DNA of 40,906 bases, taken from IMG/VR virus record IMGVR_UViG_3300021431_000039; one strand, given 5' to 3'. Below, piece after piece: positions 5,419 through 34,832 of this stretch. The stretch is from a virus. Position 1 is the first letter of the stretch. The number at the start of each line of letters is the position of its first letter. A model generated the notes under the pieces. The model was not told where the DNA came from. It ran no database searches and saw nothing but the letters and a program-made list of their open reading frames with translations. The position numbers and the translations under genes are program-made.

Positions 5419-5912
5419 TGAATTATCATAATATTACAAAAGATGATATGAACAATGGTGATGGTTTGCGTGTTGTTCTTTGGGTAGCAGGATGCAGTCA
5501 CCATTGTAAAGGTTGTCAGAACCCTGTGACATGGAATCCTGATGATGGTATTGAATTTGATATCAGAGCAAAGAATGAAATCTTCAAGGAACTGAAAAAA
5601 AAGCACATTGCAGGAATCACATTTAGCGGTGGTGACCCTTTATTTTCAACCAACAAGGGGACAGTTTTCAGTCTGTGTCAGGAAATCAAAAAGATGTTTC
5701 CAACTAAGACCATCTGGATTTATACAGGCTATGATTGGGAAGATATAAAAAACGAACCATTGATGAAATATATTGATATTTTAGTAGATGGAAAATTCAT
5801 TGAAGAATTGAAGGATGTCAATTATCCTTGGGCAGGTTCTATCAATCAAATGGTAATTGATGTTCAGGAATCATTAAAAGAAAAGAAGGTGATTTTACAT
5901 GAAAGTAATTAA
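5418..5912 (+). CDS. nrdG: Anaerobic ribonucleotide reductase activating protein (radical SAM)
   Basis: CSHHCKGCQNP (CxxxCxxC) cluster motif. About 160 aa. Overlaps and precedes nrdD. Confidence 0.9.
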   Translation: MNYHNITKDDMNNGDGLRVVLWVAGCSHHCKGCQNPVTWNPDDGIEFDIRAKNEIFKELKKKHIAGITFSGGDPLFSTNKGTVFSLCQEIKKMFPTKTIWIYTGYDWEDIKNEPLMKYIDILVDGKFIEELKDVNYPWAGSINQMVIDVQESLKEKKVILHESN

Positions 5913-8019
5913 GAAAGATGGAACACTTGAAGACTACAATTTTATAAAGATTAAAAATGCAGTCACAAAATCTGCAAAAAGAGTCATGATTGACCTTGAT
6001 GATGAAGCATTTGACAGACTAAAAGACATTGTTGAATTAAAACTGTCATTGCTGAACACAGAACTGATTCCAATTGCAGACATGCACAATGTTGTGGAAG
6101 AATCATTGGAACAGTTTGATCCAAGAATTGCAAAATCTTATAAAGATTATCGCAACTATAAAAAGGATTTTGTTCATATGATGGACAAGGTATATCAGAA
6201 ATCACAGTCCATCAGATTCATTGGTGATAAAGAGAATGCAAACACTGACAGCACATTGGTAGCAACTAAAAGATGCTTAATATTCAATGAGCTAAATAAA
6301 AGACTGTACAGAAAGTTTTTTATGACACAGGAAGAACTTCAAGCATGTAAGGATGGTTATATCTATGTGCATGACCAATCAGCAAGATTGGACACAATGA
6401 ACTGTTGTCTGTGTGATGTGGCTTCAATTATGTCAGGTGGTTTTGAGATGGGTAACGTTTGGTATAACGAACCCAAAACACTTGATACAGCATTTGATGT
6501 TATGGGTGATATCATCCTTTCAACAGCATCACAACAATATGGTGGATTCACAGTTCCTGAAGTAGACAAGATTCTTGCACCTTATGCTGAAAAGTCATTC
6601 AAGAAATATATTAATGAATATCTGAACATCACTGTAGGTGATCATAAAAATGCAGAATGTTGGGCAAGAAGCAAAGTTAAAAGAGACTTTGAACAGGGGT
6701 TTCAAGGAATAGAAATGAAGCTGAACACAGTTGGTTCAAGCAGAGGTGATTATCCATTTGTCACAATGACGTTTGGTCTTGCAACAGACGAATTTGGAAA
6801 GATGGCATCCATCACATTCCTTGAAGTTCATGCAAAGGGACAGGGCAAGGAAGGAAACAAAAAGCCTGTGTTGTTTCCTAAGTTGGTATTTTTGTATGAT
6901 GAAAATCTGCATGGTGAAGGATGCATCAATGAAGATGTCTTTGAAGCAGGGATTGAATGCAGTTCCAAAACAATGTACCCTGATTGGTTATCACTGACAG
7001 GTGAAGGATATGTTGCTTCCATGTATAAGAAATATGGAAGGGTTGTTTCCCCTATGGGATGTAGGGCATTCTTATCACCTTGGTATGAAAAAGGTGGAAT
7101 GCAACCTGCTGATGAATCAGACAAACCTGTGTTTGTTGGAAGATTCAATATTGGTGCAGTCAGTCTTCATCTTCCAATGATTCTTGCAAAGTCAAGACAG
7201 GAAAATAAAGACTTCTATGAAGTCCTTGATTATTACCTGAATATGATTAGGAAAATCCATCAAAGAACCTATGACTATCTTGGTGAAATGAAAGCATCAA
7301 CCAATCCTATCCAATACTGTGAAGGTGGTTTCTATGGTGGGCATCTGAAACCTTCAGACAAAATCAAACCATTGCTGAAACCAATGACAGCATCTTTTGG
7401 AATTACAGCATTGAATGAACTTCAGGAACTTTACAATGGGAAATCCCTTGTGGAAGATGGACAGTTTGCATTGGATGTTCTGAAGTATATCAATGACAAG
7501 GTGAATGAATTCAAGGAAGAAGATGGTTGGTTGTATGCGATCTATGGAACACCTGCTGAATCACTTTGTGGTCTTCAGATTGAACAGTTCAGAAAAATGT
7601 ATGGTGTGATTGAAAATGTATCTGACAGACCTTATGTTTCAAACAGTTTCCATTGTCATGTGACTGAAAATATTACACCAATTCAGAAGCAGGATTTAGA
7701 AGGTAGATTTTGGGATTTATGCAATGGTGGGAAAATCCAATATGTTAGATATCCAATCAGCTACAACAAAGATGCAATCAGGACATTAGTCAGAAGGGCA
7801 ATGGATAAAGGTTTCTATGAAGGTGTGAACTTGTCACTTGCATATTGTGATGACTGTGGACATCAGGAACTTGAAATGGATGTGTGTCCTGTGTGTGGTT
7901 CAACGAACCTGACAAAGATTGACAGAATGAATGGTTATTTATCATATAGCAGGGTACATGGTGATACAAGATTGAACAGTGCCAAAATGGCAGAAATTAA
8001 AGAAAGGAAATCAATGTAA
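5899..8019 (+). CDS. nrdD: Anaerobic (class III) ribonucleoside-triphosphate reductase
   Basis: N-terminal ATP-cone-like segment, C-terminal zinc ribbon CDDCGH...CPVCGS and glycyl-radical motif RMNGYLS. 706 aa. Confidence 0.9.
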   Translation: MKVIKKDGTLEDYNFIKIKNAVTKSAKRVMIDLDDEAFDRLKDIVELKLSLLNTELIPIADMHNVVEESLEQFDPRIAKSYKDYRNYKKDFVHMMDKVYQKSQSIRFIGDKENANTDSTLVATKRCLIFNELNKRLYRKFFMTQEELQACKDGYIYVHDQSARLDTMNCCLCDVASIMSGGFEMGNVWYNEPKTLDTAFDVMGDIILSTASQQYGGFTVPEVDKILAPYAEKSFKKYINEYLNITVGDHKNAECWARSKVKRDFEQGFQGIEMKLNTVGSSRGDYPFVTMTFGLATDEFGKMASITFLEVHAKGQGKEGNKKPVLFPKLVFLYDENLHGEGCINEDVFEAGIECSSKTMYPDWLSLTGEGYVASMYKKYGRVVSPMGCRAFLSPWYEKGGMQPADESDKPVFVGRFNIGAVSLHLPMILAKSRQENKDFYEVLDYYLNMIRKIHQRTYDYLGEMKASTNPIQYCEGGFYGGHLKPSDKIKPLLKPMTASFGITALNELQELYNGKSLVEDGQFALDVLKYINDKVNEFKEEDGWLYAIYGTPAESLCGLQIEQFRKMYGVIENVSDRPYVSNSFHCHVTENITPIQKQDLEGRFWDLCNGGKIQYVRYPISYNKDAIRTLVRRAMDKGFYEGVNLSLAYCDDCGHQELEMDVCPVCGSTNLTKIDRMNGYLSYSRVHGDTRLNSAKMAEIKERKSM

Positions 8020-10425: not shown

Positions 10426-10669
10426 ACACAGGAATAATGGAAAAGGAAAGGGAAACCGAAAAGCACAGGCAAGAAGAAGAAGACAAAGACAGAAGAATCA
10501 AGTCCCAAAGACTAAGAATTCTTATTGGTGCATTGATGGGAACTTCAGCAATCATCCTGTTGCTTACTGCACACATTATCATGGTGTATTGACACAGGGA
10601 TTGATGGATGTACATAAATGCAAGGAACATGGATGTTTTAGGTTAAGGGAAGGTAATAAATTTGAATAA
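10409..10669 (+). CDS. Hypothetical, highly basic Cys/His-rich small protein (86 aa)
   Basis: ATG after GGGGGTGAAG, overlapping the terS end. Arg/Lys-rich N-terminus, then C-x13-C-x-H-x-H...H-x-C-x3-H-x-C. The coding status of this purine-rich low-complexity stretch is uncertain. Confidence 0.35.
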   Translation: MTLKNKHRNNGKGKGNRKAQARRRRQRQKNQVPKTKNSYWCIDGNFSNHPVAYCTHYHGVLTQGLMDVHKCKEHGCFRLREGNKFE

Positions 10670-11891
10670 GAAATATTATTACCTGCCTGATATCGTTGGA
10701 AAAGGATATAAAAAGTTTTGGAATTTCAAAGGAAGATACAGAGCTGTAAAAGGAAGTCGTGCTTCCAAGAAATCCAAGACAACAGCACTTTGGTATATTT
10801 ACAACATGATGAAATATCCTGATTCAAATCTGTTGGTCATCAGAAAGACATTCAGAACATTGAAAGATTCTTGTTATGCTGATTTGAAGTGGGCATGTCA
10901 CAGATTTGGTGTTGATCATTTATGGCAGTTCACACTGTCACCTTTAGAAGCAACCTATCTTCCAACAAATCAGAAGATTTACTTCAGGGGGCTTGATGAT
11001 CCATTGAAAGTTACATCAATTGCAGTTGATAAAGGCTGTCTATGTTGGATGTGGATTGAAGAAGCATATGAAATCATGTCTGAAGCTGATTTTGATATGT
11101 TGGATGAATCAATCAGAGGTGAATGTCCTGATGGACTATGGAAGCAGATAACACTGACTTTCAACCCTTGGAATGAACATCATTGGCTGAAGAAACGATT
11201 CTTTGACAATCCTGATCCTGACACACTTGCATTGACTACCAACTATTTATGCAATGAATGGTTGGACAAAGCAGACTTGCAGGTGTTTGAAAGGATGAAA
11301 AAGAACAATCCAAGAAGATATGCAGTTGCAGGTCTTGGTGGATGGGGAATTGTTGATGGTCTTGTGTATGAGAATTGGAAAGAACAGTCATTCACACTTG
11401 ATGATGTAAGGAATTGCAAAACAAGATGTGGACTTGACTTTGGTTATACAAATGACCCTTCAGCATCACCAATCACGTTTCTTGATTTGGAAAATAAGAA
11501 ACTGTATGTGTGGGATGAACTTTATAAAACAGGTTTGTCAAACAAGAAAATATATGAAGAACTATCGTCAATGGGATATGGAAAAGAGAAATTCACAGGT
11601 GATTCTGCTGAACCAAAATCCATTGATGAATTGAAATCCCTTGGACTAAGAATCAAGGGGGCAAAGAAAGGAAAAGACAGCATCAACAATGGAATACAAT
11701 GGATCCAAGATCTTGAAATCATTATCCATCCAAGATGTGTCAACTTCCTGACAGAAATATCCAACTACACTTGGGATAAAGATAAATTTGGAAACAAACT
11801 GAACAGACCAATTGATGATTTCAACCACTTAATGGATGCAATGCGTTATGGTTTGGAAGATGACATCATTGGAAATGCTTGGTTGTATTAG
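10662..11891 (+). CDS. terL: Terminase large subunit (Terminase_3/PBSX XtmB-like)
   Basis: TTG start after AAGGGAAGG. Walker A-like KGSRASKKSKT, Walker B-like CWMWIEEA, and a C-terminal RNaseH-like nuclease (GLDFG...D...DA). Confidence 0.9.
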   Translation: MNKKYYYLPDIVGKGYKKFWNFKGRYRAVKGSRASKKSKTTALWYIYNMMKYPDSNLLVIRKTFRTLKDSCYADLKWACHRFGVDHLWQFTLSPLEATYLPTNQKIYFRGLDDPLKVTSIAVDKGCLCWMWIEEAYEIMSEADFDMLDESIRGECPDGLWKQITLTFNPWNEHHWLKKRFFDNPDPDTLALTTNYLCNEWLDKADLQVFERMKKNNPRRYAVAGLGGWGIVDGLVYENWKEQSFTLDDVRNCKTRCGLDFGYTNDPSASPITFLDLENKKLYVWDELYKTGLSNKKIYEELSSMGYGKEKFTGDSAEPKSIDELKSLGLRIKGAKKGKDSINNGIQWIQDLEIIIHPRCVNFLTEISNYTWDKDKFGNKLNRPIDDFNHLMDAMRYGLEDDIIGNAWLY

Positions 11892-11909: not shown

Positions 11910-13370
11910 GTGTTAAAAGAAGATGAAATTCTGAAGTTTATTCAGGAAGACAAGGTGTCAACTAAGAAACATCTTGCTTCAATTGGTCAAAAATACTATG
12001 AAGCTGAACATGACATCATGCATTACAGGATGTTTTACTTCAATGCTGATGGACAATTGGTTGAAGATACAACAAGAAGCAATGTCAAGATTTCACATCC
12101 ATTCTTCACTGAATTAGTTGATCAAGCAGTGCAGTACATGTTATCAGGTGAAAATGGAATTATTCATTCTGATATTCCTGAACTTCAGACAAGATTGGAT
12201 GAATACTTTGATGATGACTTCATCTGTGAATTGAATGATGTTCTGACAGGTACAATGGCAAAGGGATTTGAATATATGTATGCTTACATGAACAAAGATG
12301 GAAAGCTGTCATTTGAATGTGCAGATTCCCTTGGTGTTGTGGAAGTCAGAGAAAAAGACACAGATGATGGTTGTGCATATGTTATTTATTGGTATGTTGA
12401 CAAGCTAACCAAGGAAAATAAGGTCATTAAAAGAATTCAGGTGTGGGATGAAAATCAGACAGTATTCTATGTACAGGAAGAAGAAGGAAAGCTGATTCTT
12501 GATGAATCAGAACCAATCAATCCAAGACCACATGTAATTTATAAGAAAGATGGTGATGAATCCATCTATTATGAAAACTTTGGTTTTATTCCATTCTTCA
12601 GATTGGACAATAACAAAAAGCAGTGGTCAGGACTGAAGCCGATCAAGGACTTGATTGATGACTATGACATTATGTCTTGTGGTTTATCAAATAACCTTGC
12701 TGATTTTGACTATCCATTGCATGTCGTAAAGGGGTTTCAAGGTGACAATCTTGATGAACTTCAGCAGAATCTGAAGACCAAGAGGATGATTGGTGTTGAT
12801 CCTGATGGTGGTATTGAAGTTCATACTGTGGATATTCCATATCAGGCGAGACAGGCAAAGATGCAGGAAGATGAAAAGAACATTTACAGATTTGGAATGG
12901 GATTCAATTCCGCACAGCTTGGTGATGGTAATGTAACCAATGTTGTTATCAAATCAAGATATGCACTTCTTGATTTGAAGTGCAACAAGTTGGAAATCAG
13001 AATGAAGCAGTTCCTGAAGAAGATTGTGAAGGTTGTCATTGGTGAAATCAACAGACTTGATGGAACTGATTATCAGGTCACAGACGTTTGGTTTGACTTT
13101 GAAAGGGAAGTCATGACCAATGCACAGGATAATGCACAGATTGAATTGACTGATGCACAAAAACAGCAGACACAAATCAATACAATCCTGTCACTTCAGA
13201 GTGTTCTTGATGATGAAACAATCATTCAGACTATCTGTGAAATCCTTGATATTGATTATGAAGATATCAAGGACAAACTTCCTGAAGATGAAGAAAAGGA
13301 TAATCAGCTTGCACAATCCACCTTGGAAGGGATTGTTCCTGAAGAAGGTGGTGAAGACATAGATGAATAA
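11910..13370 (+). CDS. Portal protein (SPP1 gp6-like)
   Basis: 486 aa, immediately after terL, acidic C-terminus. GTG start after GAAAGGATGGTGA. Confidence 0.8.
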   Translation: MLKEDEILKFIQEDKVSTKKHLASIGQKYYEAEHDIMHYRMFYFNADGQLVEDTTRSNVKISHPFFTELVDQAVQYMLSGENGIIHSDIPELQTRLDEYFDDDFICELNDVLTGTMAKGFEYMYAYMNKDGKLSFECADSLGVVEVREKDTDDGCAYVIYWYVDKLTKENKVIKRIQVWDENQTVFYVQEEEGKLILDESEPINPRPHVIYKKDGDESIYYENFGFIPFFRLDNNKKQWSGLKPIKDLIDDYDIMSCGLSNNLADFDYPLHVVKGFQGDNLDELQQNLKTKRMIGVDPDGGIEVHTVDIPYQARQAKMQEDEKNIYRFGMGFNSAQLGDGNVTNVVIKSRYALLDLKCNKLEIRMKQFLKKIVKVVIGEINRLDGTDYQVTDVWFDFEREVMTNAQDNAQIELTDAQKQQTQINTILSLQSVLDDETIIQTICEILDIDYEDIKDKLPEDEEKDNQLAQSTLEGIVPEEGGEDIDE

Positions 13371-15018
13371 GACTGAAAAACAGATTGCTAAATATCAGCT
13401 TCAGCAGGAACAAAAGACATTGCGTGAATTGAAACAGATATATGCACAGGCATCAAAAGAACTGCAAAAATCAATCAATGACTTGAATCTTAGAACTGAT
13501 ATGCAGAATCTTCAGTCTATTATCTATCAGGTCAAATATCAGGAAGCAATGAAGAAACAGATTGATGGTATTCTTGATAAGCTGAACAAAGGGTCTTATC
13601 AGACCATCAATGAATATCTTCAGGATGCTTATCAGAATGGATATATTGGTAACATGTATTCTTTACAAAAACAGGGAATTCCAATCACAGTTCCAATTGA
13701 TCAAAAGAAAGTGCTGACTGCACTTCAGACAGATTCAAAGCTGTCTTCTAAGTATCATTCAGGTGATATCTTAAAAGGAAGACTTGCTGAAGATGTCAAA
13801 AAGCTGAAAGTGACTATCAGAACAGAGTTATCAAGGGGAATTGCAAATGGCAAAACATGGGAACAGGTAGCATATAAGATTGCACTTGGTATGAATAACC
13901 CAATGTCAAAAGCCTTGAATATGGCAATGAGAATTGCAAGAACTGAAGGTCACAGAGTGAATCAGCAGGGATTCCTTGATGCAGGTACTGAAGCAAAGAA
14001 CAAGGGGGCAGACATTGTAAAACAATGGGATGCAACACTTGATTCAGTCACAAGACCTTGGCATCAGGAAGCAGATGGTCAAATCAGGGAATGGGATGAT
14101 TTCTTTGAAGTTGGCGGTGAAAAGATGAAAGCACCATCTGTTGGTGGTTCTGCAAGGAATGTCTGCAATTGCAGATGTCAGCTTCTTCAAAGGGCAAAAT
14201 GGGCATTGGATGAAGCTGAACTGAAAACCCTTCAAGACAGAGCTGAATATTTCGGGCTTGACAAATCAGAGTCGTTTGAAGACTTCAAAAAGAGGTATTT
14301 GAAGTTACCAAGTAACGCTGATACAATGAAATTGAAAGATGTTCTTAATGTGCCTGTTAAATCTTCAGATGCACATTATGATGCATTATTGACTAAACTA
14401 AATGAAATGAAGGTTGCATATAACCCTGTAAGGAATCACACAAAACAGTTGTCTAATGAAGAAATCATCAAGAGTCTTGCAGGTGGTGACAATACATCAG
14501 GTTCATGTGCATCTGTTGCTCTTGCCTATATTGGACAGAAACAAGGATGGGATGTTCTTGATTTTAGGGGCAACAAAAGTCAGGAATTCTTTTCAAACGG
14601 TTCCAACTTGGTGAAGTTATCACAATGTGAGGGAATCAAAACCCTAAAAGCACAAGGAAAATGTTCAAGCACTGTTGGGAATAGACTTTTGAAGATGGTG
14701 GAACAAGGCAAAGAATATTATTTGTGTGTTGGAAAACATGCATCCATTGTCAGGAAGACTGATGAAGGTGTTCTTCAGTATTTAGAACTACAATCGCCAT
14801 CAAAGTCAGGATGGACAAACTTTGATGGGAATCCTAGATACACATTACACACAAGATTTGGAACATCTAAAGACACAAAATTTTATGGTGGAATGATGGA
14901 CTTCATGATTGACATTGATGATAGTAATTTTGATACAGATGATTTCAAATCCTTACTTGGTTACATCAACACATCTGATTCAGAACAGAAGAAGGGAGAA
15001 TATGGAACAATCAAGTAA
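13363..15018 (+). CDS. MuF / SPP1 gp7-like minor head protein with an extra C-terminal domain of about 220 aa (putative papain-like Cys/His domain)
   Basis: MuF core: ARTEGHRV...VTRPWHQEADGQ...CNCRC. C-terminal part: SGSCASVALAY (Cys codon 14506-14508) and GKHASIV (His codon 14747-14749). Confidence 0.75.
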   Translation: MNKTEKQIAKYQLQQEQKTLRELKQIYAQASKELQKSINDLNLRTDMQNLQSIIYQVKYQEAMKKQIDGILDKLNKGSYQTINEYLQDAYQNGYIGNMYSLQKQGIPITVPIDQKKVLTALQTDSKLSSKYHSGDILKGRLAEDVKKLKVTIRTELSRGIANGKTWEQVAYKIALGMNNPMSKALNMAMRIARTEGHRVNQQGFLDAGTEAKNKGADIVKQWDATLDSVTRPWHQEADGQIREWDDFFEVGGEKMKAPSVGGSARNVCNCRCQLLQRAKWALDEAELKTLQDRAEYFGLDKSESFEDFKKRYLKLPSNADTMKLKDVLNVPVKSSDAHYDALLTKLNEMKVAYNPVRNHTKQLSNEEIIKSLAGGDNTSGSCASVALAYIGQKQGWDVLDFRGNKSQEFFSNGSNLVKLSQCEGIKTLKAQGKCSSTVGNRLLKMVEQGKEYYLCVGKHASIVRKTDEGVLQYLELQSPSKSGWTNFDGNPRYTLHTRFGTSKDTKFYGGMMDFMIDIDDSNFDTDDFKSLLGYINTSDSEQKKGEYGTIK

Positions 15019-15220
15019 ATGGTATAAGAACAACCCTGATGACAAGATATGGTGGTTGGACAATCATGAAGTAAAAGGTGAATGGGTGTTTTCTTTTGAT
15101 AAGAAGACTGAATTCAACATGTTCAGAGATTACCCACATGCATTGACATCAGAACAAAAGAAAATCTTTGATGATGAAAATCCATATTGGAAGGAATTCT
15201 TCAAAGATAGAACACAGTAA
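15002..15220 (+). CDS. Small protein (72 aa) overlapping the MuF 3' end; candidate cognate immunity/partner protein
   Basis: ATG 15002 follows AAGGGAG and overlaps the MuF gene by 17 nt. A terminator follows directly. Confidence 0.5.
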   Translation: MEQSSKWYKNNPDDKIWWLDNHEVKGEWVFSFDKKTEFNMFRDYPHALTSEQKKIFDDENPYWKEFFKDRTQ

Positions 15221-15222
15221 TT

Positions 15223-15251
15223 AAAAACACCTTGGAAACAGGGTGTTTTTA
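15223..15251 (+). terminator. Rho-independent terminator
   Basis: AAAAACACC-loop-GGTGTTTTT hairpin followed by a T-run. Confidence 0.7.
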
Positions 15252-15389
15252 TTATGTCCTAAGTAAGACACTAAACTGCTTTATTTTTATGTCATTTTCA
15301 TGGGTGACCATGTAAAACATCAGTGACTGACAGTCACATTCAAGACATAACTTGTAAAAATTGTAAATGTGAAAGGAAGGAATATAACA

Positions 15390-16019
15390 ATGACATTACA
15401 GGAATTATTGAAAGCACAGAACTTGACTGATGAACAGGTCAAAGGAATTCTTGATGCTATGAAAGAGAACAAAATTTATACTGCATCAGAAGAAAATCTT
15501 GATGTTAGATATGGAAAATTAAAGACTGATCATGATGCACTGGTTGCGAAGGATGCAAAATCACAGAAGCTGATTGCAGAACTTCAGAAAGCAACTGAAG
15601 GTCAGGAAGATGTGCAGACAAAAATTACAGAGTATGAAAAAACTATTCAGAAACAGCAGGAAGAACTTGTTGAAGCAAAAACAGAATCTGCATTGAAGAT
15701 TGGTCTTCTTTCAGCAGGTGCAAAGGCAACCGACATTGATTATCTGATTTATAAAATGAATCATGACAATGATTGGAAACCTGAACTTGGTGAAGATGGT
15801 CAGGTGAAAGGTCTTGATGACAAGCTGAAAGGACTGAAAACACAGTTCCCAAATCAGTTTGAATCAACTTCCACAAAGAAGATTGAAGAAAAGAAACTTG
15901 AAAAGCCTGAACAGAAAGACACAGTCACAAAGGAAGAGTTCAACAAAATGGGATATCAGGCAAGAAACAAGCTGTACAATGAAAATCCTGAATTATACAA
16001 AGAATTATCAAGCAATTAA
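15390..16019 (+). CDS. Scaffolding protein (DUF4355/GP20-like)
   Basis: MTLQELLKAQNLTDEQVKGILDAM start and coiled-coil-rich sequence, upstream of the capsid gene. ATG 15390 follows GAAAGGAAGG. Confidence 0.65.
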   Translation: MTLQELLKAQNLTDEQVKGILDAMKENKIYTASEENLDVRYGKLKTDHDALVAKDAKSQKLIAELQKATEGQEDVQTKITEYEKTIQKQQEELVEAKTESALKIGLLSAGAKATDIDYLIYKMNHDNDWKPELGEDGQVKGLDDKLKGLKTQFPNQFESTSTKKIEEKKLEKPEQKDTVTKEEFNKMGYQARNKLYNENPELYKELSSN

Positions 16020-26181: not shown

Positions 26182-26408
26182 ATATACCATTATCTGTCTT
26201 ATTAGAAAATACAAAAATCAGAATGAATGATTCTGTGAATAAAGTTATTCAGGAATCAAATCTTCCTGCTTATCTGATAGAAGGAATTCTGTCAGATATT
26301 CTTGCAGAAGTCAGAAAACAGAAGAATCTTGAATTAGCATCTGACTATGCAAGTATGAATAAAGAAAATCAGAAAAATGAAGAAGATGAAAAGGAAGGTG
26401 AAGAATAA
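26178..26408 (+). CDS. Hypothetical small acidic protein (76 aa)
   Basis: ATGA overlap with Tal and TAATG overlap with the fibre gene. Confidence 0.55.
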   Translation: MNIPLSVLLENTKIRMNDSVNKVIQESNLPAYLIEGILSDILAEVRKQKNLELASDYASMNKENQKNEEDEKEGEE

Positions 26409-28504
26409 TGGCAAACATTAAACCCTATACAGATGAAATTGCAAATGCTGTGTATGGTGAAGAAGTCAGAAGTTCAATCATCAATGCACTGAATAAAGTC
26501 AATGATGATAATAACAGTTATCAGGACATCAAGAATCAGATTGTTGCTTCCAAGGATGATGTTGATGAAGCTGTTTCAGAATTTGATGCAAAGGTTGCTT
26601 CAGCACAAGATGCAACAACAGCACTTATCAATGCAACTACTTCAGCAAACACGACAAAGTCTGAACTTATCAATGCAACTACTTCAGCAAACACAGCAAG
26701 AACCAACTTAGTTTCTGCAACTACTTCAGCAAACAATGCTGAAAGCACACTGAAGTCAGCAACATCAACTGCACAGACTGCAACAGCATCTGCAAATGAT
26801 GTAAAGAAGAATCTTGATTCTTCCATCAGTTCAGCAAATAGTGCTAAATCTGCACTTGATACTGCAATCAGCAACGCAAATACAGCTAAATCAAATCTTG
26901 ATACAAGTACATCAACAGGTAGCACTGTAAAGAACAATCTTGATACTGCAATCAGTAATGCAACCGATGCAAGAAGTGAATTGAATGCAGTTATTAGTTC
27001 GGCACAGTCTGCACAGTCATCTTTGTCAGGTGTTATTGCACAGGCATCAACAGCACAGACAAACCTTCAGAATGCAACTAACAGTGCAACCAATGTCTTC
27101 AATCAGCTTACTGCTGAAAATGTTTCAGCAAAAGCAAACCTTGATGCATTAAGAAGTGAAGACTTCAATGCACAGGAAATTCTGTCAGGTGTAACAGATA
27201 TCAGAGCATATCTTGGAATGATTGAAACAGAAGATGTTCTTGGTATCACTATGGACTATAAGAACAAGACCTGCACAAGAATAGCAGGTGCAAAGAATCT
27301 GACAGCAGGTGCAGACTTTGACAAGTTCAACATGTATGGTGGAAGAAAAAGATGCAATGTGTCGGATGGTGGAACAATCAACGCTTACTATGGTGATGAA
27401 AATTACACAGAAGATGGTTCAAATGGTCAGGTCATGGTATATCAGCCTAAGTTCTATTATCTTGTGTGTCCACTTGAATATGACAGACAGGAAACAGGCT
27501 ATGGTTATCATTTAAGAAAAGCAAACTACTATGTCAGTGAAAAACAAAGGGCTGGATTCAAACTTCATCCTGCATTCTATGACAAGAATGGAAATGAAGT
27601 TGATTATATCCTTATGTCAGCATATGAAGGATGTATCTATGACACATCTGCAAATGCTTATATGCTGAATGATGAACAGGTTATGGATGCTTCTGAAGAC
27701 AAGTTCAGTTCCATTGCAGGTGCAAGACCTGCAACAGGTGTATCACAGAATCTGACAAGACCAAACATTGAACAGATGGCAAAGAATAGGGGTGAAGGCT
27801 GGCATTCCTTTGGAATCAAAACAGCATCTATGGAACAGTTGCTGATGATTGTTGAAATGGGAATGATGAATCTTCAAACTGCTATTGGTCAGGGTGTTGT
27901 CAATCTTCCTTGGACAACAGGTTCTGACACAACAAGTTCTTATGCAGGTGCAACAGGTTCAACTGCTTCACTTGGTAATGGAACAGGTAGAGCAACAGAA
28001 ACAACCACATATGAAGGTGGTGTTGCAACAGAAAACACAGCAGATGGAAAAACTTCTATTTGTTATCGTGGTGTTGAAAACTTTTGGGGTAACATTTGGA
28101 AGTTTGTCTATGGTGTAAATATTTGGGGCAATGGAAAAATGGCAGGTGGTATGCCTTACATCTGTTCAGACTTCAATTACGCTGAAGGAAAGAACACAGA
28201 CAATTATGAAGGTGCAGGATTCACAGTCACAAAAGCAAATGGATATATTTCAGCAATGGGATATTCTACTAAATATGACTGGTTATTCATGGCATCTGAA
28301 TGCCTTGGGAACAGTTCATTGCCTGTTGGTGATTATACTTATATCACTGAAAACCTAAATGGATATAGGGTTCCTCTATTGGGCGGTGGTTGGGGTCATG
28401 GTTCTGTTGCAGGTGGTTTCTATTGGGGTTTGCATGGCGGTGTTGGGGGTCGTGATCGTGGTATCGGCGGTCGCTTGGTGTATGTACCAACAGTCACTGT
28501 TTAA
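26408..28504 (+). CDS. Tail fibre / receptor-binding protein; DGR target with a C-terminal C-type-lectin (FGE-like) variable region
   Basis: Conserved fibre N-terminus, a Ser/Ala/Thr/Asn-rich repeat stalk, and a C-terminal ...GGGWGHGSVAGGFYWGLHGGVGGRDRGIGGRL encoded by the VR. Confidence 0.8.
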   Translation: MANIKPYTDEIANAVYGEEVRSSIINALNKVNDDNNSYQDIKNQIVASKDDVDEAVSEFDAKVASAQDATTALINATTSANTTKSELINATTSANTARTNLVSATTSANNAESTLKSATSTAQTATASANDVKKNLDSSISSANSAKSALDTAISNANTAKSNLDTSTSTGSTVKNNLDTAISNATDARSELNAVISSAQSAQSSLSGVIAQASTAQTNLQNATNSATNVFNQLTAENVSAKANLDALRSEDFNAQEILSGVTDIRAYLGMIETEDVLGITMDYKNKTCTRIAGAKNLTAGADFDKFNMYGGRKRCNVSDGGTINAYYGDENYTEDGSNGQVMVYQPKFYYLVCPLEYDRQETGYGYHLRKANYYVSEKQRAGFKLHPAFYDKNGNEVDYILMSAYEGCIYDTSANAYMLNDEQVMDASEDKFSSIAGARPATGVSQNLTRPNIEQMAKNRGEGWHSFGIKTASMEQLLMIVEMGMMNLQTAIGQGVVNLPWTTGSDTTSSYAGATGSTASLGNGTGRATETTTYEGGVATENTADGKTSICYRGVENFWGNIWKFVYGVNIWGNGKMAGGMPYICSDFNYAEGKNTDNYEGAGFTVTKANGYISAMGYSTKYDWLFMASECLGNSSLPVGDYTYITENLNGYRVPLLGGGWGHGSVAGGFYWGLHGGVGGRDRGIGGRLVYVPTVTV
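26624..26749 (+). repeat. Three tandem 42-nt (14-aa) repeats (LINATTSANTxxxx) in the fibre stalk; more degenerate copies continue to about 27150
   Basis: Units 26624-26665, 26666-26707 and 26708-26749 are near-identical at the nucleotide level. Confidence 0.85.
28367..28484 (+). repeat. DGR variable region (VR)
   Basis: Ungapped alignment to 28584-28701. There are 31 mismatches, all opposite TR adenines. Confidence 0.9.
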
Positions 28505-28583
28505 TTAAATATATGGGTTAGGTAATTGTTGATGGCAACATCTTCCACCTTGTTGTTATATCTGTACACAATAAAACATTTTC

Positions 28584-28701
28584 AAGATTACTCAATTAGG
28601 CAGTAATTGGAATAATGGTTCTAATGCAGGTAGTTTCTATTGGAATTTGAATAACAGTGTTGGGAATCGTAATCGTAATATCAGCAGTCACTTAGTAAAT
28701 G
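28584..28701 (+). repeat. DGR template repeat (TR)
   Basis: Contains 40 adenines. In the VR frame it reads KITQLGSNWNNGSNAGSFYWNLNNSVGNRNRNISSHLVN (AAY-rich). It is non-coding and lies between the target gene and the RT. Confidence 0.9.
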
Positions 28702-28713
28702 CGTGGTTGATTT

Positions 28714-28741
28714 CAGGCAGTCCAAAAGGACTGTCTGTTTT
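28714..28741 (+). other. Strong hairpin 12 nt after the TR (10-bp stem with one G-U pair, AAAA loop, then TTTT): DGR RNA spacer structure or intrinsic terminator
   Basis: CAGGCAGTCC-AAAA-GGACTGTCTG-TTTT. A second 7-bp hairpin lies at 28796-28815. Confidence 0.55.
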
Positions 28742-28913
28742 CATATAAAAATTGTGGAAATTACTTGACCCTGCCACTTGGCAAAACACAAAAGTCTGTC
28801 ATTCATTGATGACAGCACATGGAATAAATCTGTTTTGGTAAATCCTGAAGGGAAGTTGAAGAATCAGAAACACGCATACAAAAATGACAGAAAGAATTGG
28901 TGGTTGTGATTAT

Positions 28914-30032
28914 ATGAAGCGTTATGGACATTTATATAAAAAGATTTATGATATGGAAAATTTGAAGTTGGCACACCAACATGCAAAGAAAGGGAAAGGA
29001 TTGTATGCAGAAGTACAAATGATTGATTCTGACCCTGACAAGTACCTGAAGGAATTGCAGGACATGCTGATAAATAAAACCTATCATACATCTGAATATG
29101 AAGTGTTCTATAAAAATGAGCATGGGAAGATAAGAAAGATTTATAAACTTCCTTATTTTCCTGACAGGGTTGCACAGTGGGCAATCTTGCAGGTAATTGA
29201 ACCATATTTGATCAAGCACCTTATTTCTGATACCTTTTCAGCAATACCTGACAGGGGAATTCATAAAGGACTTAGCAGGGTAATGAAAGCAGTTCAACAT
29301 GATGTTCCAAACTGTCAATATTGTTTGAAGATAGATGCAAGACATTATTATCAATCAGTGAATCATGACATTCTGAAACAGAAATACAGAAAGATGTTCA
29401 AAGACAATGACCTTCTTTGGATTCTTGATGAAATCATTGATTCAATCAATACAGCAGAAGATGAAGACCTTGTTTCAATATGGTTGTTAGATGAAGACAT
29501 TGATCCAAACACAGGGATTCCAATTGGAAACTATCTGTCGCAGTATAGTGGGAATTATTACTTCAGTGATTTTGATCATTGGATAAAAGAAGTCAAGCAT
29601 GTCAAATACTACTTCAGATACATGGATGACATTGTAATTCTTGCAAGAACTAAGAAAGAATTGCATCAGTTGCTGAATGAAATCAATGAATACTTTCATA
29701 AAAATATGAAGTTAAAAATCAAGAAGAATTATCAAGTGTTTCCAACTTATGTCAGGGGTATTGATTACCTTGGTTATAGAGTGTTTGTTTCCTATGTGTT
29801 ACTAAGAAAGCAGACTTGCAAAGACATGAAGAAGAAAATGGTGAAGATAAAGAAGAAAGTTGAATCAGGGAACATGATGAACTATTCAGAATGGTGTTCA
29901 ATAAATTCTTACAAAGGTTGGACTAAGCATGGAAATTGTTTCAGACTGACACAGAAATATATTGAACCATTGATTCCATATGCAACTAAATATTATGAAT
30001 TGAATGTCAAGAAAGGTGGAAAAGTAGCATGA
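28914..30032 (+). CDS. DGR-type reverse transcriptase
   Basis: IPDRGIHKG, LKIDARHYYQSV, IPIGNYLSQYSGNYYF (DGR-specific [IV]GxxxSQ motif), YMDDIVIL (YxDD), IDYLGYRV. ATG 28914 gives the usual MKRYGHLY...NL..A start; the track start is 28884. Confidence 0.9.
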   Translation: MKRYGHLYKKIYDMENLKLAHQHAKKGKGLYAEVQMIDSDPDKYLKELQDMLINKTYHTSEYEVFYKNEHGKIRKIYKLPYFPDRVAQWAILQVIEPYLIKHLISDTFSAIPDRGIHKGLSRVMKAVQHDVPNCQYCLKIDARHYYQSVNHDILKQKYRKMFKDNDLLWILDEIIDSINTAEDEDLVSIWLLDEDIDPNTGIPIGNYLSQYSGNYYFSDFDHWIKEVKHVKYYFRYMDDIVILARTKKELHQLLNEINEYFHKNMKLKIKKNYQVFPTYVRGIDYLGYRVFVSYVLLRKQTCKDMKKKMVKIKKKVESGNMMNYSEWCSINSYKGWTKHGNCFRLTQKYIEPLIPYATKYYELNVKKGGKVA

Positions 30033-32410: not shown

Positions 32411-33463
32411 TTATATCTTATTTATAGCTTCAAGTTTGAATGGTAATTCAATATGTGTATAAACTGTTTGTGTGACACCTTGTCCCTTATGACCAACAAT
32501 CTTCTTGATGATTCTTTCATCAACACCTGCTTCAGTAAGCAATGACACACAGGTGTGTCTTGTATCATGTGGGCGGTGCTGAAGTTTTAATTCTTCCATC
32601 AGTGGTGTCCAATAACTGTCATAGTAGTTTCTATAACGAAAATGCTTATCATCAGGTGTGCAAATCAGATATTCACAATTCCTATCTAACCAATATTGGA
32701 AGAATGGAACAATCTTTTCAGCAATTGGAACTTCTCTTATTCCTGATTTTGTCTTTGATTCCCTTACATAGAACCATCTTTCATCAAGATGCACATCTTC
32801 CTTTTTTAGATCTAGTAATTCACTAATTCTAACACCTGTATAAATCAGCATTAGGATAACAGAATAATAAATATTAGAATCCTTTACATTCCAAACCATA
32901 TCAATCTGTTTCTTGCTAAATGGTTTTCTATTGTATGCATTTGGGTTTCCTGCCTTGGTGATATCAACATATCTGACCATATCCCTTTTATCAGCAGTCA
33001 CAATTTCATGCATCACTGCATAGTCATACATCAGCCCAAACAGGATTTTCATCTTCTTCAGTGTTGGTGTGTTCTTTCCTGATTCATCAACTGCCTGTTG
33101 CAGGTGGTCAAGTTTGATTTCCACAAACTTCATGTTGTGCAATTTCTCACAGGCTCTGAATGACGCTTTATATCCTTTCACATTGGAATCAGACACCTTT
33201 GGAAAATGCACTTCAGACCACTTTTCAAATACTTCAGCAAAGGTGATTGTGTTGTGGTGTAAGTCATAAGGGTCTTTGTTGTATTCTGCAAGGGCGGTCA
33301 ATGCTTCCTTTCTACTTTTATAATATCCAACAAAAGCATAGATTGGATAAGACTTCTGTTTTTCTTCATCAAATGTCCATCCTGTTGTCTTCCTTGCAAC
33401 CCAAGGTTTTCTTCTGTTTCCTGATAACTTATAAACACTTCCAAAACCATTTGGTAAACGCAT
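32411..33463 (-). CDS. int: Tyrosine integrase
   Basis: TGVRISELLDL (Arg), HDTRHTCVS (HxxR), GHKG...TQTVYTH (His, Tyr). The ATG giving MRLPNGFG lies 11 nt after GAAAGGA; the track start is 33475. Confidence 0.9.
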   Translation of the reverse strand: MRLPNGFGSVYKLSGNRRKPWVARKTTGWTFDEEKQKSYPIYAFVGYYKSRKEALTALAEYNKDPYDLHHNTITFAEVFEKWSEVHFPKVSDSNVKGYKASFRACEKLHNMKFVEIKLDHLQQAVDESGKNTPTLKKMKILFGLMYDYAVMHEIVTADKRDMVRYVDITKAGNPNAYNRKPFSKKQIDMVWNVKDSNIYYSVILMLIYTGVRISELLDLKKEDVHLDERWFYVRESKTKSGIREVPIAEKIVPFFQYWLDRNCEYLICTPDDKHFRYRNYYDSYWTPLMEELKLQHRPHDTRHTCVSLLTEAGVDERIIKKIVGHKGQGVTQTVYTHIELPFKLEAINKI

Positions 33464-33560
33464 AAATAAACACATCCTTTCGTAAAATTGGGTGACTTTA
33501 ACAAAGGGTTGTGTTATACTTATTTTGGTTAAATTTGTGTGTATAGCACAATCCTTTGAT

Positions 33561-34166: not shown

Positions 34167-34832
34167 TTAGAATTTCTGTCTGTTTTCAATGACTCTTCCA
34201 ATAATTTGAACAGGCTTTTCAATGATGTCTTTGTTGGAAAAATACATTGGTGCATATGTAGGATTAAAAGACTGAAGAACTATACCACCATCCTGTTTCA
34301 ATAGCTTCTTCACACATGCACTATCATCATTTACTTGTGCAATAACAATATCACCTGATTCTGCATCAGACTGTTGTTTGACAATCAGAACATCACCTGC
34401 TTGCATTCTTGGTGACATGGAATCACCTTTGACCTGAAGACCAAAGAATTCACCTGTCTGTGCAAGCCTGAATGGTATTTCTTCCCAATCCAATACTTCT
34501 TCAATAGCTTCAATTGGGACTTCTGCAACTACCTGATCAAGAACAGGAATCCTGCATCCTTTTTCAATCCTTATTGATTCATCTGATAATGCTTCTGAAT
34601 TATACTGTGCATCCCACATTGCTTCTTGTACAGATTTATATTCTGATTCACCTGTCAGATAACTGATTGAAACACCAAAGTAATTTGCAAGTTTGGTCAT
34701 AGTTGCATTATTTGGTGTGAATGTCTTCCATTTAGATGAAGACCCTGCACCAAGACCTGCTTCCCTTTCTAACTGTCTTTTGGATATCTTTCTTTCCTTA
34801 CATAATTGATTGATTCTGTCTATAAATTCCAT
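34167..34832 (-). CDS. CI/LexA-like repressor (XRE HTH plus S24 peptidase domain)
   Basis: N-terminal HTH ISKRQLEREAGLGAGSSSKW. C-terminal GDSMSP (Ser) and VKKL (Lys) autoproteolysis motifs. Confidence 0.9.
   Translation of the reverse strand: MEFIDRINQLCKERKISKRQLEREAGLGAGSSSKWKTFTPNNATMTKLANYFGVSISYLTGESEYKSVQEAMWDAQYNSEALSDESIRIEKGCRIPVLDQVVAEVPIEAIEEVLDWEEIPFRLAQTGEFFGLQVKGDSMSPRMQAGDVLIVKQQSDAESGDIVIAQVNDDSACVKKLLKQDGGIVLQSFNPTYAPMYFSNKDIIEKPVQIIGRVIENRQKF

Follow-up and report, generated by a model that had tools for sequence, protein, structure and literature searches.

Prophages of the human gut and of streptococci abound in MuF toxins, of which only two enzymatic types, Apk2 and Bxa, have been characterised; both are toxic, and small immunity proteins encoded next to them neutralise both (PMC12226406, PMC11699363). 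Entry together with the DNA is thought to occur for SPP1 gp7 and is the proposed route for MuF toxins (Zhang 2012 PMC3482391; Jamet 2017 PMC5576092). The family Tox-PL1 is defined by an NC-H-DxQ signature, and its fusion to MuF has been noted (Zhang et al., PMC3482391). In 2024 a MuF toxin from Bacteroides, described as a 'glutamine deaminase', was modelled together with its small open reading frame (ORF) (PMC11699363). Here we analysed a locus of this kind in IMG/VR record IMGVR_UViG_3300021431_000039, a stretch of 40,906 nucleotides (nt), hereafter the window, which is the genome or prophage of a temperate siphovirus, a gut phage. The locus consists of a MuF-family gene, whose product of 551 amino acids (aa) ends in a domain of PHROG 7104, and of a small overlapping gene for a 72-aa protein of the Pfam family DUF7675. 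The type of system is already known; the pair formed by the PHROG 7104 domain and DUF7675 has not previously been described. We consider it probable that the two genes encode a MuF-family polymorphic toxin and, from the overlapping small gene, its cognate immunity protein.

The MuF gene lies downstream of the terminase and portal genes and upstream of the scaffold and capsid genes (Table 1). According to the ORF list, the end of the portal gene overlaps its start by 8 nt, and a portal neighbour is the context by which MuF genes are defined. The Phage_Mu_F core of Pfam was matched by aa 151-274 (E 8e-16), and head-morphogenesis PHROGs covered aa 1 to ~370. The N-terminal part was also matched by phrog_595, which carries the label 'head maturation protease', and an NCBIfam search returned nothing beyond a sub-threshold gp7 match. 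The first-pass annotation of this DNA had described a MuF head protein with an extra C-terminal domain, and the ORF, its Phage_Mu_F match and the occurrence of the extra domain in 933 clusters bear this out. It had also placed a standard MuF domain in the first ~290 aa; the identity stands, and the extent has to be revised as the conserved module reaches aa ~325. This module is presumed to be the part that targets the protein to the capsid or the portal.

Beyond the module the protein is exchangeable. In a search with aa 1-300 as the query, MuF proteins that are 95-96% identical over the N-terminal ~325 aa carried unrelated C-termini. The PHROG 7104 domain recurred at this level, at only 73-80% identity, and the other C-termini were ADPrib_exo_Tox (P0278), an HEYGH form (P0281), an HEFAH form (P0286) and CW_7 repeats (P0284). 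The HEYGH protein, of 592 aa and HExxH peptidase-like, was present on at least 48 contigs. At ~68% N-terminal identity the C-termini included Tox-PL1 (PF15644) and the ATLF metallopeptidase (PF07737). Directly after '...NADTMKLK', at aa ~325, identity collapsed. Of the 120 closest N-terminal homologues, 100 had extensions of 80 aa or more. These extensions belong to no fewer than 11 unrelated C-terminal families, the majority lacking a Pfam model; one is a 23-member family of ~530-554-aa proteins. Further C-terminal variants on the same backbone are P0273, P0303, P0323, P0332, P0341 and P0350.

The same picture was obtained at the DNA level when the window was aligned with three syntenic loci carrying other variants (L179, L181 and L182). 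The flanking DNA was 92-96% identical in the aligned segments (~94% on the left), and the non-homologous block, from 14309/14339 to 15204/15237 of the window, comprised the domain and the small ORF only. In these three loci the small ORFs of the slot encode 60 + 53 aa, 99 aa and 79 aa, and the Tox-PL1 variant (L183) has a small ORF of 83 aa; none of the small ORFs in the four loci is DUF7675. The portal, scaffold and capsid genes are the same in the 95%-identical relatives with other C-termini. The domain and DUF7675 move jointly as a cassette of ~0.9 kb, and no GC anomaly of the cassette was seen in the base composition of the window. That C-terminal domains might be swapped with the downstream ORF had been raised by the first-pass annotation, and it is what the near-identical MuF proteins display, each alternative domain being accompanied by a different small ORF. 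Nor is the domain an unvarying part of MuF, since it is replaced in relatives of 95-96% identity.

The domain belongs to a large sequence family. Residues ~310-551 matched PHROG 7104, labelled 'unknown function' (E 4e-34), and no Pfam model, toxin families included, matched the C-terminal domain. PDB sequence searches gave nothing but noise, whether the query was the MuF protein, the small-ORF product or a profile of 23 sequences. With aa 310-551 as the query, HMMER identified 933 cluster representatives (clustered at 50% identity, E<=1e-3). In the 150 representatives listed out of the 933, from proteins of 145-1016 aa, the match extended to the extreme C-terminus. Cys382 (14506-14508), His459 (14737-14739), Glu475 (14785-14787) and Gln477 (14791-14793) were invariant in these 150, as was Asp376, six residues N-terminal of Cys382. 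The invariant or near-invariant positions in the same set can be written as G374-G-D376-x-T-x-G-S-C382, D400-x-R402, S406, K-E-Y452, H459, Y-L-E475-L-Q477, G-W484, R498-F and the tail L-G-Y-I-N-T...K-G-x-x-G. The two motifs singled out at first sight, SGSCASVALAY and GKHASIV, are present and hold Cys382 and His459, respectively. The invariant Cys/His/ExQ set argues for catalysis.

Carriers of the domain that have a recognisable N-terminus are MuF-type head proteins, namely proteins with PF04233, proteins with PF06152 ('minor capsid protein 2'), the Bacteroidota Bxa type, PF06152 proteins with an ADP-ribosyltransferase and a MuF with an intein; two long carriers have no recognisable N-terminus, and one family member contains two tandem copies of the domain. 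The hosts include Clostridia, Lachnospiraceae, Atopobacter, Streptococcus (prophages), Butyrivibrio (phage Ceridwen), Selenomonas, Canicola (Pasteurellaceae), Alistipes and Bergeyella. The relatives in GenBank were 16 Streptococcus prophage records under host-strain names and Butyrivibrio virus Ceridwen, and the annotated copies of the domain are all named 'hypothetical' or 'minor capsid protein'. The conserved tail, LGYINTxxxxQxKGxxGxxK, occupies aa 531-551 (14953-15015), and its last ~12 residues were of low confidence in the structural model described below. That the KGxxG motif is a mere by-product of the ribosome-binding site and start of the embedded small ORF was rejected as the sole cause; the motif is kept in a locus whose small ORF is antisense (L015).

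The domain was modelled with AlphaFold2 from a 54-sequence alignment drawn from the fetched loci, and the model was confident (predicted local distance difference test score (pLDDT) 90, predicted template modelling score (pTM) 0.89). In the DSSP assignment, helix 42-54 begins at Ser42/Cys43 (Cys43 being Cys382), strand 120-126 begins at His120 (His459) and strand 132-136 ends at Glu136 (Glu475). Asp37 of the model (Asp376) lies at -6 from the Cys, and Glu475 follows His459 by 16 residues. The corresponding residues of papain are Gln19, Cys25, His159 and Asn175, so that the Asp-Cys and His-Glu spacings of the domain equal those of papain. The model shows the papain-like (clan CA-type) cysteine-hydrolase layout, with the Cys at a helix N-terminus, the His at the start of a strand, a polar third residue on the next strand and, at -6, a residue in the place of the oxyanion residue. 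The papain-like arrangement first read from two short motifs is upheld by this confident papain-type prediction. The PDB fold neighbours included Josephin-type clippases, the PaTox cysteine-protease-like domain, C39 peptidase domains, phytochelatin synthase, tegument-like deubiquitinases and SpvD, and the better matches with substantial coverage were nearly all papain-fold enzymes; NlpC/P60 proteins appeared only low in the lists (E 0.3-1.3). Outside the family itself, the top match in BFVD (E 1.4e-4, probability 1.0, template modelling (TM) score 0.45) was to a phage protein that bears the name 'Papain fold toxin 1, glutamine deamidase'. On the strength of the model we take the domain to have a papain fold, Tox-PL1-like yet of a separate family. 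Its predicted chemistry is that of a peptidase or of a Cif/Tox-PL1-like glutamine deamidase.

The small ORF, whose 17-nt overlap with the 3' end of the MuF gene was already noticed in the sequence and recurs in most related loci, encodes a clear member of DUF7675. It scored 111.2 bits against PF24723 (cut-off 27) over model positions 1-64 of 65; its PHROG, phrog_6473, is labelled 'unknown function'. A Shine-Dalgarno-like AAGGGAG within the end of the MuF gene suggests, as judged from the sequence, that translation of the small ORF is coupled to that of MuF. We collected 99 loci with the domain (19 genomes and 80 viral contigs) in a locus search from a 6-sequence domain alignment. DUF7675 lies directly downstream of the domain in 98 of them, and the sole exception stops at a contig edge. 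The small ORF is thus conserved as the candidate pair would demand. The pairing occurs on MuF1, MuF2 and Bxa-type backbones and spans Clostridia, Streptococcus, Selenomonas, Pasteurellaceae and Bacteroidota. In two Bacteroidota loci (L015, 4620-4838; L018, 4619-4876) DUF7675 adjoins the MuF-domain gene on the opposite strand, in convergent orientation, which implies a promoter of its own and transcription independent of the head operon. The AlphaFold2 model of DUF7675 (pLDDT 80) has three short strands and two C-terminal helices, and its fold search against the PDB gave no match below E 3. A literature search for DUF7675 found no paper. DUF7675 was also seen as the C-terminal part of longer proteins (L167, 1829-2704, 292 aa; L165, 606-995, 130 aa), the extensions of which have no Pfam match.

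DUF7675 also occurs without the domain, which was absent from 18 of the 79 viral loci found through DUF7675. In one of them (L159, 1261-2704) a MuF protein of 351 aa ends at the toxin junction, and an orphan DUF7675 follows 185 nt downstream; the short MuF matches the N-terminus of a domain-bearing protein with E 2.5e-179. A serine-recombinase-like gene comes after the orphan in this locus. In five loci (L157, L160 and L164-166) the neighbour of DUF7675 is a homologue of the 60-aa ORF that accompanies the HEYGH variant, and in two (L079 and L080) the 79-aa partner of the HEFAH variant directly follows DUF7675. A prophage of Canicola haemoglobinophilus (L014, 3092-6380) has the order MuF-domain, DUF7675, HD_4, a second DUF7675, a 148-aa ORF and Colicin_immun (PF09204). 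Alarmone hydrolases are the enzymatic immunity type of the Apk2 MuF toxins (PMC12226406), and the HD_4 protein shares a domain family with them, by which a link to Apk2 immunity may be inferred by analogy. In polymorphic-toxin systems, immunity genes are classically marked by orphan copies and mixed poly-immunity arrays (PMC3482391; PMC11699363). In its distribution DUF7675 looks like an immunity gene; orphans and arrays of this kind would not be kept for a chaperone, a structural head protein or a protease regulator whose protease is missing.

These results can be assembled into a mechanism modelled on the described MuF toxins. The MuF part would take the enzyme domain into the capsid, beside the portal, and the domain would enter the cytoplasm of the next cell with the DNA. 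There the Cys-His enzyme would modify or cleave a target protein. In the producing cell DUF7675, made by coupled translation, would bind the enzyme and block its active site, and the DUF7675 kept by a lysogen, orphan copies included, would shield the cell when a related phage injects the same enzyme. The candidate virion-delivered toxin/immunity pair put forward by the first-pass annotation is supported by the cassette swaps, the papain-type model, the linkage of DUF7675 and the temperate phage. Several observations weigh on the other side. No Pfam toxin model matched the 551-aa protein, and PF15644 gave no match at E <= 0.1. When the domain was compared with 5 MuF Tox-PL1 domains by hhalign, only 20 columns around the Cys helix were aligned, and the score fell short of significance (E 0.04, probability 1.3%). 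The Foldseek matches in the PDB were weak, the best at E 0.02 and with TM scores of 0.33-0.40. The domain is almost confined to MuF carriers, and none was seen on carriers of the type VI secretion system (T6SS), the type VII secretion system (T7SS) or RHS, unlike typical polymorphic-toxin domains. Mean column identity is 61% for DUF7675 and 50% for the domain, which is unusual for fast-evolving immunity proteins. Lastly, an ADP-ribosyltransferase precedes the domain in some proteins (P0134), and a processing role would fit this arrangement too.

Part of this evidence would suit an injected effector for host takeover or anti-defence, an explanation on the unlikely side in our judgement. The domain would cleave, deamidate or 'clip' a host protein, such as a defence factor or ubiquitin-like conjugation, to aid infection; DUF7675 would be the inhibitor that serves as a safety catch during assembly, and its orphan copies in prophages would block an incoming effector, that is, superinfection exclusion. 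In its favour are the closest fold matches in the PDB (Josephin-type ubiquitin clippases from bacteria, tegument-like deubiquitinases from viruses, and C39 peptidases), the near restriction of the domain to capsid-internal MuF carriers, the orphan DUF7675 in other phages and the high conservation of DUF7675, which would be expected of an inhibitor aimed at a conserved active site. The deubiquitinase matches, however, are weak (E >= 0.02), the slot holds classical toxins in near-identical phages (ADP-ribosyltransferase) and, at lower identity, Tox-PL1 and ATLF, and DUF7675 is arrayed with colicin-immunity and HD_4 genes. Moreover, an enzyme with its inhibitor is common to this explanation and to that of toxin and immunity, and only the biological purpose differs. 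In its boldest form, a non-killing virion-delivered papain-fold 'clippase' or deamidase that disables a bacterial defence or ubiquitin-like conjugation pathway within seconds of DNA entry, with prophage DUF7675 as a new class of superinfection exclusion, the idea seems to us distinctly unlikely.

A processing peptidase was proposed for MuF-fused Tox-PL1 by Zhang et al. 2012 (PMC3482391), and here the Cys-His domain, working in cis or within the procapsid, would cleave MuF, other head proteins or an upstream effector domain at assembly or ejection, with DUF7675 setting the timing. The ADP-ribosyltransferase upstream of the domain in some members, the member with tandem copies and the label of phrog_595 on the N-terminal part would agree with such a role. 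We regard it as very unlikely, since the domain is dispensable, its place being taken in 95%-identical relatives by other domains or by short CW_7 repeats (P0284), and since DUF7675 is found in non-head contexts and is retained alone beside the short MuF in L159, where a protease regulator would have nothing to regulate. Highly improbable is a non-catalytic structural add-on, or an NlpC/P60/CHAP-like peptidoglycan hydrolase aiding entry, with the small ORF as an unrelated minor head gene. The low-ranking NlpC/P60 matches and the name 'minor capsid protein' given to relatives might recommend it; the former are at noise level, the invariant Cys/His/ExQ set points to catalysis, a cytoplasmic partner kept in 98/99 loci is unexpected for a wall hydrolase, and the small ORF travels with the domain and not with the head genes. 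Both the structural and the peptidoglycan-hydrolase versions were rejected on the invariant catalytic set, the conserved partner and the noise-level NlpC/P60 matches. A toxin with its cognate immunity protein remains the explanation that we favour.

Directly after the small ORF, where a rho-independent terminator had been expected, a stem-loop with the sequence AAAAACACCUUG-GAAA-CAGGGUGUUUUU is followed by a T-run. The hairpin folds at -17.3 kcal/mol (z = -4.5, none of 200 shuffles being as good), which supports that expectation; a consensus terminator scan of the window did not report it. Of 47 non-redundant loci, 38 have a hairpin with a T-run, of differing sequence, no more than 115 nt beyond DUF7675, as compared with 26 of 210 random windows of those loci; the feature is thus conserved at the 3' end of the module. 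The two loci L181 and L182, which have other cassettes, align again with the window from 15213 and 15204, respectively, which places the hairpin inside the common right flank; it is therefore not specific to the cassette of the PHROG 7104 domain and DUF7675. The hairpin may mark the end of the terminase-portal-MuF transcription unit or the border at which cassettes recombine. The terminator and the scaffold gene are separated by 148 nt, and within these lies a perfect palindrome, GTGACTGTCAGTCAC, at which a regulator of a late promoter could bind.

Table 1. Positions in the window of the MuF locus and of the other features mentioned in the text
Feature	Position	Strand	Remarks
NrdD-like anaerobic ribonucleotide reductase	5899-8019		phrog_487, E 1e-234
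Terminase	10662..11891		homologues in syntenic loci called Terminase_3
SPP1-type portal gene	11910..13370	+	directly 5' of the MuF gene; Pfam SPP1_portal (PF05133), E 6e-60
MuF-family gene	13363..15018	+	551 aa; stop codon 15016-15018
Conserved MuF N-terminal module, aa 1-~325	13363..14339	+	Pfam PF04233, E 8e-16
Variable C-terminal region, aa ~326-551	14340..15018	+	helical lead, then predicted papain-fold domain (PHROG 7104, E 1.5e-34)
Shine-Dalgarno-like AAGGGAG	14992..14998	+	within MuF 3' end, 3 nt upstream of the small-ORF ATG
72-aa DUF7675 protein	15002..15220	+	candidate immunity protein or inhibitor; Pfam PF24723, E 2e-32; phrog_6473
Rho-independent terminator-like hairpin and T-run	15224-15250	+	right border of the swappable cassette
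Perfect palindrome	15323-15337		between terminator and scaffold gene
Scaffold gene	15369..16019		capsid genes also in the head module after MuF
Diversity-generating retroelement	26408-30032		
ORF of 698 aa	26408..28504		
Variable repeat	28371-28484		3' end of the 698-aa ORF
Template repeat	28588-28701		
Reverse transcriptase	28884..30032		phrog_1423, E 1e-115
Integrase	32411..33475	-	
CI-like repressor	34167..34832	-	

The remainder of the window agrees with the temperate setting that had been supposed for the pair. The window has an integrase and a CI-like repressor, from which a temperate lifestyle follows, and replication genes are encoded in it as well. Another gene of the window, for an NrdD-like anaerobic ribonucleotide reductase, is in keeping with an anaerobic host in the gut. 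Farther downstream it contains a diversity-generating retroelement, in which all mismatches between the variable and the template repeat fall on template adenines; the position of the ORF that ends in the variable repeat suggests a tail fibre or receptor-binding protein.

If the explanation holds, the PHROG 7104 domain with DUF7675 would be a large and well-delimited third type of MuF toxin, with ~930 clusters, predicted catalytic residues, a confident model and a candidate partner, of which a close relative occurs on more than 900 contigs, and DUF7675 and PHROGs 7104 and 6473 would gain a function that can be tested. The gut-phage MuF backbone appears as a reservoir of uncharacterised candidate toxin/immunity pairs, and its clean cassette borders offer a natural system for the roles of capsid-delivered enzymes, be it killing competitors, steering lysogeny or countering defence. 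The protection of cells by orphan DUF7675 against injected enzymes, if true, would be a form of phage-phage immunity.

Compared with known systems, the short MuF proteins SPP1 gp7 and Mu gpF share with the protein described here the PF04233 and TIGR01641-type gp7 module and the place after an SPP1-type portal gene, whereas they have neither a C-terminal enzyme domain nor a coupled small ORF. Papain-fold effectors (Cif/CHBP-type, BpJOS/PaJOS, the PaTox cysteine-protease-like domain and SpvD) resemble the domain in topology and in a Cys-His pair with a polar third residue, the set being Cys-His-Gln in the Cif/CHBP-type deamidases. However, the structural similarity is weak (Foldseek E 0.02-0.8, TM 0.2-0.4) and sequence similarity is absent, and these effectors are secreted and have eukaryotic targets, whereas the domain sits on a phage MuF head protein.

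Tox-PL1 (PF15644) comes nearer. It shares with the domain a papain-type fold, the order Cys...His...[D/E]xQ (SC-H-ExQ in the domain) and the location at the very C-terminal end of MuF proteins, some of which are ~68% identical to the one described here. The domain differs from it by the additional motifs GGDxTxGSC, DFRGxxS and LGYINT...KGxxG, and the 83-aa partner ORF of the Tox-PL1 locus L183 is unrelated to DUF7675. An assignment of the domain to PF15644 finds no support in its sequence, which gave no hidden Markov model match at E <= 0.1 and no significant hhalign score, and was not adopted. The 'glutamine deaminase' MuF of PMC11699363, WP_139147237.1, was not found among the members of the domain cluster that were searched.

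The closest resemblance is to the MuF polymorphic toxins as a class (Zhang 2012 PMC3482391; Jamet 2017 PMC5576092). As in those systems, a MuF N-terminus just after the portal is joined to a variable, here predicted enzymatic, C-terminus, the C-terminal domain co-varies with a small ORF (<150 aa) that follows it directly, the phage is a temperate phage of gut Firmicutes, and poly-immunity arrays lie nearby in relatives. Unlike in those systems, the C-terminal domain stands outside the catalogued toxin domains, with PHROG 7104 and no Pfam model, the partner DUF7675 is not a described immunity family, and the pair is known here from sequence and models. Within that class the domain would fit the group that Jamet called 'C-terminal extension with unknown domain' (PMC5576092).

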